A stretch of DNA of 64,000 nt from Ascidiella aspersa (lineage: Eukaryota): NCBI GenBank assembly GCA_963924565.1, contig OZ004615.1, forward strand, positions 19,468,001-19,532,000. Reading direction: 5' to 3'. The position numbers and the translations under genes were made by a program. The notes below the pieces were generated by a model. The model ran no database searches. It had not been told where the DNA came from and worked only from the letters and a program-made list of their open reading frames with translations. Positions 1 to 20,300 of the stretch are shown here, in pieces (the first letter of the stretch is position 1; the number at the start of each line of letters is the position of its first letter).

Positions 1-12
1 GCCCAAATAGAC

Positions 13-90
13 GTTAAAAGCGACATGCATCACTGATGATGGCATTACAAATTGCCGAAACGTTTGAAAATAAAGCATGTCGCTTTTAAC
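13..90 (+). ncRNA. Putative minimal type I hammerhead ribozyme (Penelope-like element pLTR type)
   Basis: CTGATGA core at 33-39, stem II GGCA/TGCC (41-44/53-56), GAAA at 57-60, palindromic ACGT as stem III, stem I TCA/TGA, and a perfect 16-bp distal helix (13-28/75-90). Confidence 0.6.
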
Positions 91-2166
91 AACTTTAGGT
101 TTTTTATGTTTTTTTAAATAAGCACGGCCAATTTCGCTTTGCACCAATTTAAACGTAAGTGTCTAGAAATGTGTCAAGCCTACATTTTATTAACGTTTAG
201 ATCCTCTATTTTATTTTTTTAGGGTGTTGACGTGATTGATTTTTTTAATGATTCGCCCCGGATTGGGTAATTTTAAATACCTTATTACTATGAGCAACAC
301 TAGCAAACTTTCATTAACTTAAAACGGTGATTTTAATTTCACGCGTGATATTTGACTTTTTCGTGATATTTCACTCTCAAACGCTCGAAAGCAGGCTTGT
401 CGAGGTGACAGGATTGTCGCGTTACAAATCAAATGAACCTCGGTTTCCCACATATTTATTGTCTGGATTTTTCCGTCTGTACATAATTCACCTCACATAT
501 ACCCAACGTTACTGGGGTCAGGCAACCTCCTTTCGTTACTTTCATGCCGGCAATAAAGACACTTACAAAGTTTTTCGAAGAAGGTGTTTTCTACATACTT
601 TGATAACCAAGTCTAGATAACCCACCGCTATTTTTAAGGGGTGAAATTTGAAACGAATTCTTTTTAAACTTATTACCAAGATTAAATATGAATTACCAAC
701 CTTGTCAAACACAACTTTTCACCCCAGTGAACAACTGTGTTGTCTCATAGTCCACTTAATCCTTCATTTCCGTGCTTACTAGTATTTTAGCGAAGTATTA
801 AGTTGCATCCAAATCACTGCGGCGGATATTTACGCAAAACTTCACACTTAACCTCGAAAAAAATACGAAACCTCAGGCCACACAAGGCGATATAAACAGG
901 CGCACATAACTTGTAAAGGGACCCCTAAGGTGCAACAGAACTAATGTATTTTGGCTGTCGTTCTCGGGCAATTTTTTATTGAGGCCCACCCGTGCAGTTA
1001 TTTTAACAGTAAGGAAAACCGCTCGGTTACTCGTTTGCGAATGTCACTTTTGGCGTTGAAGGATTTACAGCGGTAAGTTTAACGGCCAAATAAAGTAACG
1101 GTTATACGTTCAAAAAACTCGCACGACAAAAAAAAATGAAAGTCAAAAACTGTCTAAATAATAATGACGGTTATTTGTAATGTTTTCCTGCTTCCTGGAT
1201 TTTAACGAGAGGTTTGCTAGAAGAATGTGTGCCGTGTTTTAGTTTTAGCACCTATACAATGATTCTGAACTGCCCAACTGATGTGTAGGACCAGGTTTAG
1301 TGAGAAGATACATATATTCTGTTATCAGGGTCACACGACTATAAATCCGACAAAACCAGATGTTGTTCTAATTCTGTAGTTAACCTCTGCGATTTGAGAT
1401 GGTGGATAATGTTGTCTAATCATTAAAAAATGTGCCGTGATACCGTGGCATAAAATATTTAAAACCAGTTGGCCTTTGATTATTAAAATGCAGGCAAGAC
1501 ATTGTCCTTCTGAAATAATTAGATTGATCTTCAGTTCCTTGACTTCGCCGCATCCTAGAAGCTGATTTTGCTTGTAATTATTATCGGCCATCTTGTCTAG
1601 GTTTGTGTCCCACTCCTGCATACGCTGTGTACTGTTAGAAAGTGGCCCATAATCGTTGACAATGTTAACTGTCAAACTAAAAAATATCAGGAATATTGTA
1701 TGCACACGTTTAAATATGTAACGTCAATAGTATAAAAAATAAATATCTAAAGAAATGTAAGTGTACGCTTGGCATCGGCTGTTGGGAAAAGGTAACCTGT
1801 TGAAAAATTCGAACTCATCACCTCAACTATACATGGCCGTCGATCTATCAAGTGTGGTATTTTGTGATAAAAGATAAGTCACTTCGTAATACACCCTTTA
1901 CGTCCTTAGAAACATGCTCTATAGCTTAAAACATTCTATAGACTTTCCTGTCGTAGTCAAAGTCAGTCATTATTAAGTTCTAGTCATTAAAAAGATGTTT
2001 TTCGCCGCAAAAAAATAAGTCATAATCAGTATCTTAAGAATGAATCAAACTCTTTTAATTTGAATGAAATCCAGGTCTTTTAATTCTAATGTAATTAAAC
2101 TCTTTTTTTTTCGAAACCATTTAAACCATTTACCTATCGCCTATAACAACCGCGTTATCTTCCCAG

Positions 2167-2360
2167 GACCGACAAACGATCCTCTTGGGAGTGCGGCTAC
2201 AACGGGACTCGCTCTACCTCGACTACTTCGGTCTTCCGCCGGGAAAGAACATCCGGGTGCAGAGTCCACGCTTAGGCGATGGCAAGTGGCACACAGTGGT
2301 CATCACAGTGACCAGACGGGAGGTCAAGTTTACCGTGGACTGCCTCGCAGCTGTCAACAT
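2167..2360 (+). CDS. TSPEAR: TSPEAR exon (LamG: DRQTILLGVRL...DGKWHTVVITV...VDC)
   Basis: ttcccag| acceptor, |gtaagt donor, phase 0 to 2. Confidence 0.9.
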
Positions 2361-5300
2361 GTAAGTCAGTGTTTCTTAATCAAGTGAATGGTTCACCCCA
2401 GGGTGTATAAATTTGTTGCAGGGGTGAACTAACCAAAAGGGGCGAATAAGGGTGAACCGTTAGAAATGGTTGATAGCTTGCGAGCAGGGCGGATATTCCG
2501 GGTGTTCAACCTGTTCAGTGAAATATAGACGAGATAGTTTTATCATATCATGATTGAGACAAGAGTGAATGAAATCTGACGATATATGCTATTGCTAGGG
2601 GTAAACAAAACTAAAAAAAGTTTAAGAAGCACTGATGTAAGTGACACGAAAATACTTGTTGCTTCCGGGCGTTGTTTCACTTGTAAAATGGTTCTTCCGA
2701 AAAAAATTGTTCTTGTAAGTGACACGTTTGGACTGCTTTGTGTTGGGCTGTTTATCGCAGGCGTTATGCTTTGCATCGCGGTAAACGCTTTTTTTTTAGG
2801 TATTGGTGATGTCCGATAATATCGGATCGTAGCCGATATCCGATATCAAATGATATATATCGATACTCTTCCAAAACTAGGGTGATATCGGTGCTGATCC
2901 GATACCAAATTAATTTGTATATTTCAGCCGCGGTTTGCGTTCCAAAGAAACGTTTACTACGCACCTCACAAAAGGTAAAATTTCTTAGCAAATGGTGAAC
3001 GAGCAGTAACTTAGTTATTAACACTAAGACAAACTTTAGATAAACAACATTGAAACCATTACATTTATACGTTAAGTTTCCTGCTAAATCACAGTAATGA
3101 TGTCATTTTTATTTTAGGATTAGATTAGACGGTCGTACTTTTGGGCCAAAATATCGGGTAACGGTATATATCGGGTAAATCTTTTGTACGTCACTGGTAA
3201 GAGAGTTCACTTTGGTGAGCGCCGGTCTTTCCATATAAAGATCGTTTCTCCCATTGCAAAAAAAGAGCCATTATATTCAAGAACCACCATATAAATAAAC
3301 TGACAACAATAGCGATTTGAAGGCAAAGGTTTCGGAACTATTAAAAGTACATTTGTACAGCTGCACAGAAACAAAGTGTTGTTATTTGAGACATTTCCCG
3401 TAACGAGCGACTCGCTACGGTGCACCCCGTTACCATAAGACCGTTTTTGTTTTAGAATTAAACGAGTTAAAGCGCAAAGCATGCCAAAACACTAAGTGTT
3501 ATCTCCACCGTGTGTCACAGTAAGTTTCACAGTAAGTAACAATAAAGTATCACTTATAAACTTCCGGCACCATTTTGTGCTTATTGTTTCAGCAGCCTAC
3601 ATTATTAACAATATTCGATTAAACTACAAGTAGAACACTTTGCTAAACTAATCTATGGAAAACTTTTTTTTAAGTTGAAAAACTTTGATTTTTGCAACTG
3701 AAAGGGGCGCAACTGAAATGTTTTTTTTTTTTTAACCCAAACTAGTTACAGCTTTTCTAAAAATAGTCTTTTTTTGGCTTTTAAAAGTCAAAACACCGGA
3801 AGTAAATGTGTACCCTCGCGGAACACCGCCGCCTTCAAAAGGGGCCACTTTGTCCAGGACCCCCCAAACCATGGCCCCCCACCCCTCGCTAAAACGCCCC
3901 TATTGTTCCGGAACCTAACAAAACGGTCCTGAGTGTGTTTGATGTTGTTCGATGAAACGTAAACAGCCCGAGCAGGTTCAGCCGGCGCAGGTGTTGTGCC
4001 CTTGTTTCGTCACAAACACGTGGCCGGTCGCGGTTCACTGAATACGCATCGGCTTACAGGCTAAAGACTACGCTTTGCTGGATATTGCGCATACTTGACG
4101 AGTCTAATGACTCTGTCTGAAAAAACACTGATTTTTGCGAACCATTCGACCTAATCAGTGAAACGTAAATACCTTTTATCGTTAGGCAGTAATATCGTAC
4201 TGTTGCACTTCGATAAAGAACGTGGCTGTTTAAAGTCCTTTTAAAAAAACGTTTTGAAAGAAAGAAAAACTTCGGTAAACAAATTGTTGTCAATCGTTTA
4301 AGTTGTATCCACTTATGGTGTTTAGATGTCGAACCAGTTGTTAACGAATTTAACAAAAAAATTGTCTTCTTTTTAAATGATTTGCCTTGAAAGCACAAAC
4401 AACGTAAATACCAAATACCGTGTCCGTGTTTTTCCCTTTTAAAAAAACACCCACCACAATCAGATTTCAACACAAAAGTACATTTATCCGCGAAAGTAGC
4501 AAAACATCACGTGTCCAGGAAACGGGATAGGCGACCCCGTTTTTCGATTTCGGTTTGACCCCTCGCCCCCAATTCGGAACACTCCTTGGGACCCCAATCG
4601 TGCCCCAATCGCGTTAAATAGACCCACAGCTGGCCCCAGAGAAAACTGGGGGCCGCGAAAAGGAAACGCGGCCCTCTGAAACAGGAAACGTGCTTGGCAT
4701 CGTAGCGACAACAACATTAAATGCTTTTTTAGAGCGAGATTACGTGTGCGATCCACGAAAGTGGGCCGGGGTTCGCGCTGGATAGAGCAGGTCACCCCCA
4801 TTGGTCTTGTTTTCGGAAACCGAATAGGAAGCCCAGTTGGTTTGGTACCATTTGCAAAGCGCAACGGGGGTTGAGTGATGCGTGATTGAATAATAGCTTT
4901 TCCGTTTTCGTGGGTACACCATGCACGGATCTGTAATGTAGCTTGATAATGAATTGCAAAGCTGAAAAGGTCGAGTAGATCGACATCATCTTGATTAAGA
5001 CGTTTCGATTCGAGCTTGTATCATCTACAGGTAATATGTTTCGTTTAAGGCAAATTTATAAAAATGATTGGCAGATTATTATTGACCAAGTCGTTGAAAA
5101 GGGTGTGGTTTGATTCTGAGGGGAAAATTCAACCGGTAAAATAGTTAAAATCATGGCGGCGAGTGCAGGGATTAATATTTCACGAGAAACAAGTTTCCAA
5201 TTGGGTATTATTTGAGTATTATCAAAAATCAAAACATGCGCATTTGTGACAGAATCCTAGTCAAAATAACTATTGAACCAAAAACATGTTTTTACATTTC

Positions 5301-17300: not shown

Positions 17301-20300
17301 AAAAGGCACTCGACTATAGGCTCGCGAATTTTCTAACTTGTGGCTTTAAGTAGGCCGGCGGTCTATTGGCGGTCGCCGTAAGTACCTTGATGACATAGAT
17401 AAACCCCCGAATAGCCTATTTGGCTGGCGCGAGCGAAAAGCGTTAAGGGTGCGACCGATCCATACTTTTTGTAAGATAAAGCGCCTCTCGATTTTAGCTA
17501 CACATTCATCTAAAAACCTCCGGTTTATATTTAATAACTCGCTTTAAAATGGTACTACAGGACAGATATTAGTTACATTTTACGGTTCTAAACCGAATTC
17601 GGAAATGTTTTGCACTGAATAACTCAAAATCTACAAAAAAAAACAACCAATTGAGTAAAACATGCACGCACATATGTGTTAAAGAACTCTAAACTAGCCC
17701 TTCTGAGGGTTTTTGGCCAACGTTTACCGCTTCGTATCATAATACGCCGAAAGCCATGTGAGCGATGGCTTTCAGTGTACAATTGACGTGACTGAGGGTT
17801 TCACGAGTTGATTTTGTGTTGGCATGTGTACAACATAGTGCGCCCAATTTCATAAAAACGGAATACAAACCATATGGTGCTGTTTTAACACGAAAAAAAT
17901 CGCTTTAACTGAAACTTAATGACTACCATTGCCTCTGCAAGGCGGTGCTGTGTCGCCCCCTGGCGGATATTGGTAACAATGATTATAACCGCTTTGTGTT
18001 GTCACTTTCAGGGTTTATTACGTCAAGTAAAGTTGTTTCCTGGTTCTGACGCGTCAATTCCACTCTGCGCTAAACCCCAAGAAAACAACTACTTTCCGTC
18101 GTGGCTCAGCACCGTTCAACCTAGTAAAGGTAAGTTTGTTGTTCCATCTTAGCGCCAATAACTTTGTGACATCTATAGATAAGTGGTTCTTATTCGCAGG
18201 TCCACAGTAAAAGTTTTCTTTATTTATGCAGGTAAAACTTTAACTGCGAAGGGGAAAAAATGTTTTGCGCATTGAGATACTGTTTCAGTATGTTAGGCCT
18301 TTTTTCGAGAGTCCGTTCAGCACAAAAACGCCCCTGGTAGTTGGTGAGACTCCAGGTCTAAATCGTGCCTTCGAAATTACGCTTACCTTGATTTTTGCTT
18401 TTTCTACCGGACCACAAGTTATCAATTTTTACGAACAGGGCAAAACTTGCGTTGGATTAACGGTAACACTTGCCTGTGAAAAATATCAAGTTTCTATACA
18501 GGGTAGTTAAATTTTTACGTTAAAAAGCATTAAAGCAAAGCGTGTAGTCAACATTTAAAAATTTAAAATAAACCCCCATGCATTTTTAATCCGTAGTTGT
18601 TAACTATTGCTGTGTTTCGAGACTAATCCTATTTTTTTAACGTTTCTTAGCTACTGAACCGGCTCGCGTTCAAATTAGCGACGATTTCGATGAAGAAGCG
18701 ACTTGCAACGAGGAGAACGAGGGCCGACTGATTTACACGAGGAACATGGGCCAGCTGCAGATGTGCGATCGAGACAGGTGGAAGCGATTAGCGACAAGTA
18801 AGTGTGCTTTAAAGTATACAAAGGTATTCATAAAGCAGAAGGTTAGGCACAAAACTGCTGTCGCTGTAGGAATTGTTACGGACCGATTCGCACCAGGCAA
18901 GACGCTGCTCTTTTTTCTCGCTAAAGAGTTTTTGCACTAACAAACCAAAGTCATTTGGCTACAAAATCACTTTTTTATTTGTGATCTCTACACTGGAAAA
19001 TCCCGCTTGCACGACACACCTGCATCGTGGACAATAATTCCAACCTAACTTTATATTTATAAAATAAGCAATAGGCAATCTGCTTCAATATATTTCTTCA
19101 CTTTAGTTTGTAGTGTTTGACAGTGCATTTTTACGCAGTGTTGCAATTGACTTCAGTTTACAACTACGATCAATTAGCACTGAACCTTATACTTAAATAT
19201 ATCATTAGTATTAGGGATGTCCGATAATATCGGATCGCAGCCGATACACGATGCCAAGTGGTCGTATCGGTACTCGTCCGATGTTATAGGGTGGTATCTG
19301 TGCCGATCCGTTACCAAATCAATATAAGGAATTTCAGCCATAATTTGCGATACAACGCAGTGAAGCTAAATGTATCGAAAATTATAGTAGGTTAACAACT
19401 GAAGTTCACTAAACTTTTTTACCCTAAAGCTAAAGCAAATTTTGGCGTAATCACCTGAAAAAGTAACCTTCGAGTGTTTCGATTTCATCTGTTTTCGCTT
19501 GATAACGGATCGCGATAGTTTTGTCCAAAATATCGGGTATCGGCATCGGAACAAAATATCAAGCATCAGACGTCCCTAATTAGCATCCACTTTGCAGCCA
19601 CGGAGCGACTGGATTACGTTAGTGACTACAGTGACCTGGTCACCAAGAGCAAGACACTGGACGTTGAGATCTTTCGCATCCCGGAGGAGGGACTCTTCCT
19701 GGCCGCCGCCAACCAGGGGAGGAACAAAAGCATGGACTCAACGCTCTACAGGTGGGACGACGCCAAGAGGAACTTCGTCCTGCATCAAACCATCAAAACC
19801 GACACGGCGAGGGACTGGGAGTTCTTCACCATTGAAAGCGAGGTAAGGAAAACAAATTTGTCGTCTTTTAAATCAATATTTTTCATAATTTTTTTTAAGT
19901 TGGCGCTTTCCTAAAAAAATTAGTCTGTTAGGTCGTTTTTATTTTTTTAAATCTTTTCGAAAGTTTAAATAACCTGGGGGTAGTATATATTTTTTTTGAG
20001 TGCCGCAACCAGTCGTTTAAAAATGGTACGTCAGTTTAACTTTGACTCAATCACCTTTCAATGACTTGTTGAATTTTGTAAGTAGCATATTTCGTCTAAA
20101 TCTAAATCAACCAATCATAGCCTGGTTCAAAGCTATAAAACGTTACTTAACTTAGAAAGACTAACCCACAACCTAAGCATAGAATTAAGAGTAAATTAGT
20201 AGAAACATCGACTTTTTGTCTATTAATTACAAGTGACGAAATGGTTGAGATTCACTGCTTGCCTAGAAACTATAGCTAAGCGCCCAATTTGGTGTGTTAA

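Follow-up and report, generated by a model that had tools for sequence, protein, structure and literature searches.

A very probable Penelope-like pseudo-LTR fragment with a predicted minimal hammerhead, inserted head to head in an intron of a TSPEAR-like gene of Ascidiella aspersa

Analysis of a 64,000-nucleotide stretch of Ascidiella aspersa contig OZ004615.1 (positions 19,468,001 to 19,532,000, forward strand; hereafter the window) located a short insertion at its left edge, within an intron of a host gene. The intron, of phase 0 and about 2.6 kb, runs from the GT at L001:1068, left of the window, to the AG at window positions 2165-2166. It separates an upstream exon (L001:918-1067) from the next exon (2167..2358, + strand), which encodes a Laminin G domain, and EPTP repeats lie downstream in the same gene (19519-19911). 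We take this gene to be TSPEAR or TSPEAR-like, a name that goes by its LamG plus EPTP domain architecture. A preliminary description, made from the window alone, had suggested that a hammerhead motif lies in sense orientation within a TSPEAR intron, and inspection of the sequence to the left bore this out: the motif is intronic and sense to the host gene, and the insert begins 46 nt left of the window. An expression look-up found no RNA holder in the index listing. RNA run X7, of which about 6% was read, gave 0 reads on the two flanking exons and matches on repeats alone, and it therefore says nothing on the host transcript. Other high-copy repeats, marked by raised read depth, occur at about 2380-2530 and 1850-1960 in the same intron and the next, and a third family has a hammerhead stub (L087, − strand near 792) about 9.2 kb to the left of the window, on the strand opposite to the host gene and either close to that gene or within it.

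The insert is 132 bp long and consists of an antisense arm of 74 nt and a sense arm of 58 nt, joined bluntly and head to head. Element positions are counted from the first base after the predicted ribozyme cut, which is position 0 (window 65), such that a window position equals the element position plus 65. The left arm (L001:1455-1528, − strand; its visible part at 1..28 of the window) is an antisense copy of element +83 to +10 and carries the Penelope 'tail'. The right arm (29..86, +) is a sense copy of −36 to +21, or to +25 with the 4 nt common to the target, and it begins at the commonest 5′ end point of the family, the putative transcription start. This arm is short, since the usual tail-less arm ends near +56 and that in the window stops about 30 nt earlier, at the 4-nt target match; either unusual priming or a subsequent microhomology deletion would account for its length. 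Element segment +10..+25 is present in both arms and gives the perfect 16-bp inverted repeat at 13-28/75-90. The preliminary description had seen this repeat as enclosing the motif, but, judging by the arms, it is a by-product of head-to-head insertion, the overlap of two copied arms, and not part of the ribozyme. The right arm also contains AATAAA (69..74, +; element +4..+9), which is altered in subfamilies and related families and for which we found no evidence of use, and the first codons of the element ORF (77..86, +), with the ATG at +12.

A 12-bp target-site duplication flanks the insert, with one copy just outside the left arm (L001:1443-1454) and the other at 87..98 (+). Contigs of runs X1, possibly the assembled sample, and X2, another sample of the same study, contain an empty allele in which the insert is skipped and a single target copy is present, and the insert is therefore polymorphic; DNA run X6 was too shallow at this locus for genotyping. 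The T-rich tract noted after the motif in the preliminary description is indeed present, at 99-116, but it is host DNA because the empty allele contains it. In carriers, the element AATAAA and the host U-rich tract (window 69-116) resemble a cryptic intronic poly(A) site.

Re-reading of the window found the hammerhead boxes, AATAAA and the inverted repeat each at the place claimed from the sequence. The motif (30..67, +) comprises helix I, formed by TCA 30-32 and TGA 65-67; the core CTGATGA (33-39); an extra U (T40); helix II, in which GGCA 41-44 pairs with TGCC 53-56; and GAAA (57-60), followed by CG (61-62) and TT (63-64). A palindromic helix III remnant spans 58-65, and the predicted cut falls between 64 and 65. 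The available text of PMC4209133 gives as hallmarks of the minimal hammerheads of Penelope-like elements (PLEs) the core boxes, an extra base before helix II, G10.1-C11.1 and a palindromic helix III remnant, and all four are present in the window motif (extra base between 9 and 10.1; palindromic 15.2-16.2). Both searches proposed in the preliminary description were run, with divided results: a minimal type I descriptor with filters for helix I, helix II and the palindrome gave a single match in the 64-kb window and 0 in 100 dinucleotide shuffles, whereas Rfam, applied to window 1-2000, gave 6 weak matches at E <= 10 and listed no hammerhead family. A looser core pattern had 2 matches with at most 1 mismatch, exact only at 30..67 (0.12 expected). 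Window bases 1-130 fold at z = −3.9, because of the inverted repeat. On its sequence features, the window motif is a predicted minimal type I hammerhead.

The conservation of the core on which the preliminary description had staked its reading was found across families. The core is intact in 122 of 140 family arms that span the hammerhead, and three other families among the fetched loci keep the core and GUU and alter helix I in compensating fashion. GUU had been called a suboptimal cleavage triplet; it is the norm here, being kept in 4 of 4 families aligned. Across 6 distinct sequences, 42 of 42 helix cells were paired and 2 helix I pairs showed double changes, a covariation score reached by 2 of 500 shuffles in a set that is small and related and with a structure modelled on the window copy. 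Subfamily differences of the element are located in loop II (window 45-52), where variants at −19 and −16 switch together from T/A to G/C, the G form also introducing a stop into the upstream reading frame. The helix III duplex has a nearest-neighbour energy of −6.1 kcal/mol. A nearest-neighbour model that ignores non-canonical core pairs puts the open-core monomer fold at about 0.4% and prefers a mis-paired core. Cleavage by the hammerhead is predicted to require dimer formation or assistance from a protein; monomeric minimal hammerheads were not cleaved in vitro in the experiments covered by the accessible part of PMC4209133, and the Anolis PLE hammerhead required protein (PMC11167929). At L173 (− strand near 267) we saw a fourth type of hammerhead, in which the helix II region is longer and helix I is ACC/GGT.

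The insert is multicopy. A 19-mer motif from the arms had 628 exact genome matches compared to 0 for its reversed control, and a first-look genome search returned 743 candidates. The preliminary description had seen neither a second copy nor an RT/GIY-YIG ORF in the window, and both were found elsewhere in the genome. Walking upstream through longer copies led to the longest one, L086, which lies about 3.9 Mb from the window on the same contig. In it, a broken ORF with a reverse transcriptase (RT) and a C-terminal nuclease is followed by the pseudo-LTR that carries the hammerhead, and a truncated copy of 1.2 kb, in inverted orientation, precedes them. L086 is 5′-truncated, frameshifted and interrupted; about 1.5 kb of foreign, partly repetitive DNA (L086:3950-5400) splits its RT region. 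A 124-aa piece of L086 matched RVT_1 at E 6e-6 (26.5 bits, below the Pfam curated cut-off of 29.6), and the RT piece showed 32% identity to an 836-aa RT protein. The nuclease contains the conserved series Y-C-C-Y-G-T-R-H-H-E-N, in which C193, C195, H214 and H225 form the CCHH and the catalytic-type Y, R, E and N are also conserved. Pfam and PDB sequence searches with the L086 nuclease itself gave no match, and a 3-sequence fold likewise gave no identification. Pfam GIY-YIG (PF01541) was matched by 30 of 60 aligned nuclease relatives, and a nuclease model of pLDDT 92 had the UvrC GIY-YIG as its top fold match (probability 1.00; E 9e-3, weaker than E 0.001) and also matched the I-TevI GIY-YIG domain. 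By inspection, the linker of the L086 protein is without a CxxC motif, which would fit Penelope/Poseidon by a criterion given in the part of PMC8557442 available to us. A search with the 5′ part of L086 found no other long copy among the best-scoring candidates, genome searches that scored the best candidates found no intact or tandem full-length copy, and the part of the ORF beyond the tail was unseen in the copies found.

Because L086 joins the pseudo-LTR to both RT and GIY-YIG, we identify the element as an endonuclease-bearing (EN+) PLE and not as a retrozyme, MITE or host ribozyme. The insert is very probably a recent, polymorphic pseudo-LTR fragment of such an element, and the locus in the window is unremarkable mobile DNA. 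Three families have a Met at +12/+13 and similar N-termini, which would place the hammerhead in the 5′ leader. In a second PLE family (L093, − strand near 2433; L094, + strand near 3072; and L095) the core is the same and helix I differs; a TATA-like box and TCACTT lie upstream, the helix II ATG shares the reading frame of the ORF, and the tail seemingly ends at the same codons.

Family statistics came chiefly from a non-random main sample, for which we fetched every locus behind the first 100 entries in the list of 628 matches; these lie on contig 1 and the beginning of contig 2. We dropped 4 loci that duplicated pattern-sampled ones, overlapping loci, 12 of 138 inserts as flank duplicates (perhaps mistakenly in two cases), which left 126 unique inserts, and, in a third set, 6 of 80 as point mutants. 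Most parsed copies are 60-440 bp long. The 67 unique inserts of the main sample comprised 53 head-to-head, 12 single and 2 other arrangements, and 51 of the 53 head-to-head inserts paired one tailed arm (ending near +88) with one tail-less arm (near +56; p 3e-13 against 0.5), with 2 tail-less pairs and 0 tailed pairs. Among 44 inserts of a second set, drawn from 59 obtained with other queries, 38 were tailed plus tail-less, 2 tailed plus short and 4 tail-less pairs; in the third set these pairings numbered 46 of 53 tailed plus tail-less, 4 short plus tailed and 2 tail-less, with 1 tailed pair. The tail-less arm end is fixed near +50..+59. Target duplications of at least 11 bp flanked 76 of 89 inserts, compared to 3 of 440 mismatched controls; their mode is 12, most are 11-13 bp, and they are 79% AT with a tendency to AA..TT. 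The two arms of one insert carry the same subfamily markers (22/23, 25/28 and 33/35), and in many inserts each arm has sequence absent from its partner. Primer microhomology, the match between target and template, averaged 2.7 nt, a value that is uncontrolled. One region (L157-L163; G000:C1 37.57-37.73 Mb) has one insertion every ~20 kb, in both orientations, and is a segmental array of host DNA. Short templated pieces of upstream element sequence lie between the arms at L044/L054, L045, L059 and L125, which suggests several template jumps.

The 5′ ends of arms were concentrated at one hot spot. Positions −39..−33 held 27 of 122 ends (Fisher p 7e-15 vs downstream positions), and they fall sharply on two adenines, each preceded by a pyrimidine and located 29 and 31 nt downstream of a TATAAA at −67; few ends lie at −37 or −39. 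Genome-wide pattern matching gave 71 ends at −36, 70 at −38 and 4 at the cut; the 70 are an overcount because 6 of 40 fetched '−38' matches were point mutants within longer arms. DNA reads from another individual fell in depth from ~1490 to 590 across −36; a drop was also seen near +4, where a subfamily insertion and variants private to the reference copy act as confounders. The cut site was spanned by 85 of 122 arms, and ends near it were not enriched (p 0.29). We had considered cut RNA as the main template and rejected it: the 4 cut-site ends in the first sample were insignificant at that p value, and there were just 4 such ends genome-wide, as counted with the main subfamily pattern. Of 53 inserts in which an arm terminates at the hot spot, 1 has a partner arm that extends beyond it and 1 a partner that likewise terminates there; 25 of 52 arms reaching the hot spot continue upstream. 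RNA run X7 contained 129 element reads on both strands, with no pile-up of ends.

Extra bases at hot-spot junctions form a palindromic ladder, G/TG/GTG/CAGTG, of 1-7 nt and starting with G: one-base inserts are G in 8 of 9, and 29 of the 36 junctions with G have T in second place. The junction in the window is blunt, without palindromic addition. We at first favoured the cap as the only origin of the extra G, on a comparison of 18/34 with 29/106 in a set partly pre-seen by eye and against a background unstratified by excluded base; this explanation was weakened because the extra bases continue as a palindrome. The ladder matches snap-back synthesis, and a cap-derived C and snap-back are inseparable on these junctions.

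Together these patterns suggest that twin priming on uncut RNA is likely. The element protein, probably as a dimer, would cut the target at AT-rich AA..TT sites, with a stagger of about 12 nt between the two strands, and each 3′ overhang would prime reverse transcription on uncut element RNA, one start being at the tail end (~+88) and the other at an inner site (~+56). One cDNA would often reach the RNA 5′ end, 36 or 38 nt upstream of the cut and thus at the start of helix I, gain a few palindromic bases there by snap-back and then be joined to its shorter counterpart. The hammerhead of the parent element would lie within the first 40 nt of the transcript, just before the ORF start, where its cut would remove the capped leader. 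A transcription start at −36/−38 is inferred from DNA ends only; longer arms that pass the hot spot would be expected because of read-through into the 3′ pseudo-LTR. These steps have a counterpart in the Anolis PLE protein, a predicted dimer that cleaves and extends the two strands, with uncut RNA as template and with two internal start sites that delimit the tail (PMC11167929). We lean slightly towards this detailed model of twin priming from a transcription start. More tentatively, with a little less than even confidence, we propose that integration is concerted, with a dimer, a fixed 12-nt stagger, each RT start used once per event and uncut RNA capped at the hammerhead's first base, and that the ribozyme is a 5′-leader switch that would remove the cap and upstream AUGs and not a template processor.

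One-sided tails could also arise by self-priming, in which a single tailed cDNA folds back at the −36/−38 palindrome and is copied to a full hairpin, central deletions then trimming the arms, as proposed in the accessible sections of PMC3846280. The palindromic additions of 1-7 nt at the hot spot, with T so often second, and the subfamily markers common to both arms fit such a path, and both arms ending at the hot spot in just one insert would be expected if perfect hairpins were purged. However, in many inserts each arm has sequence missing from the other, so that an extra deletion would be needed every time; the tail-less end is fixed at about +50..+59, matching a known type of RT start site (PMC11167929); and the window junction is blunt. 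We therefore regard self-priming as rather unlikely. The hot spot itself could be a stall of the RT at the base of helix I or at a small palindrome instead of a transcription start, and it does coincide with helix I and an imperfect inverted repeat, about half of the arms reaching it going on upstream. Against this stand the sharpness of the ends at two A's at a set distance from TATAAA, a related family with a TATA-like box and TCACTT at similar spacing, and the longer arms that read-through into the 3′ pseudo-LTR would itself produce; we consider a stall unlikely.

Two further readings set aside a PLE origin or give the insert a host role. A non-LTR retrozyme, or a MITE-like DNA transposon with terminal inverted repeats, would be short, non-coding and high in copy number, with inverted ends and a target duplication, as here. 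Yet the 126 unique inserts that we parsed included no head-to-tail hammerhead array, the tail sets the two ends apart, the centre varies from copy to copy, and the long copies continue into RT-EN sequence. Linkage to the ORF and asymmetric ends refute this reading, to which we give next to no credence. The phrase 'PLE/retrozyme terminus' in the preliminary description accordingly holds for its first half, a PLE pseudo-LTR with a minimal type I hammerhead, and fails for its second, the copies being head-to-head and ORF-linked, without tandem arrays. The intronic copy could instead act on the host transcript, by self-cleavage or by cryptic poly(A) addition, and lower TSPEAR output in carriers: it has an intact core in sense orientation, helix I might be kept closed by the 16-bp stem, and AATAAA (69-74) precedes the U-rich tract. 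Nothing supports a host function for the insert, because it is polymorphic. With no partner copy in the window, the open-core monomer disfavoured by the nearest-neighbour model and the failure of monomeric minimal hammerheads and the protein requirement in Anolis noted above, an effect on the host appears very unlikely.

The closest kin of the element, as far as the available parts of the sources extend, are EN+ PLEs with inverted pseudo-LTRs, namely Penelope/Poseidon and Adineta Pen2/Pen2a (PMC3846280; PMC8557442 Fig. 2). Common to these and to the element described here are an RT, a C-terminal GIY-YIG with CCHH, a hammerhead in a pseudo-LTR downstream of the ORF, an inverted 5′-truncated copy, a target duplication, TATA and Inr-like motifs in the pseudo-LTR and a tail on one end, of 30-40 bp in EN+ PLEs and about 32 bp here. 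In contrast to these elements as described there, most copies here are the short fragments noted above and no intact copy was found, and the duplications are 11-13 bp compared to 8-10 bp in Adineta (PMC3846280) and 'variable' lengths (PMC8557442). PAc, a Poseidon element of Anolis carolinensis (PMC11167929), is alike in having two start sites bounding a tail in the first codons of the ORF, AT-rich targets, an uncut RNA template and a helix II ATG 26 nt before the cut. Unlike in PAc, the helix II ATG here either lies outside the ORF's frame or is followed immediately by a stop, and the common Met at +12/+13 comes after the cut; PAc initiation was reported as non-homologous, whereas short, uncontrolled target-template matches are present here. 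The sections of PMC4209133 at hand describe metazoan minimal hammerheads as sharing the core boxes, extra base, G10.1-C11.1 and palindromic 15.2-16.2, mostly in solo copies or close inverted pairs; the helices here are 4 bp (II) and 3 bp (I), compared to 7-8 and 4-5 bp in the Schistosoma families.

The value of the family is statistical, as its hundreds of copies hint at a likely mode of PLE insertion. One-tailed inverted insertion and the role of the hammerhead are stated as open in PMC11167929 and in the available portions of PMC8557442 and PMC4209133, and tail pairing, narrow duplications and cut-avoiding ends make sharp predictions for the existing in vitro system. In the literature searched, we found no paper quantifying tail pairing, duplication length and end points; older Penelope papers (Pyatkov 2004, Arkhipova 2006, Schostak 2008) and supplements may cover part of this.

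Two further systems resemble single aspects of the family, to the extent that the accessible text of each describes them. At the snap-back 5′ junctions of R2 (PMC11204384), the cDNA 3′ end likewise primes extra self-synthesis before joining, but R2 is a site-specific non-LTR element with one cDNA, whereas here 1-7 nt are added and a second, opposed cDNA is joined. Animal non-LTR retrozymes (10.64898/2026.07.22.740005) carry a type I hammerhead related to that of PLE pseudo-LTRs, but consist of tandem non-coding units, in contrast to the head-to-head stub of a coding element found here.
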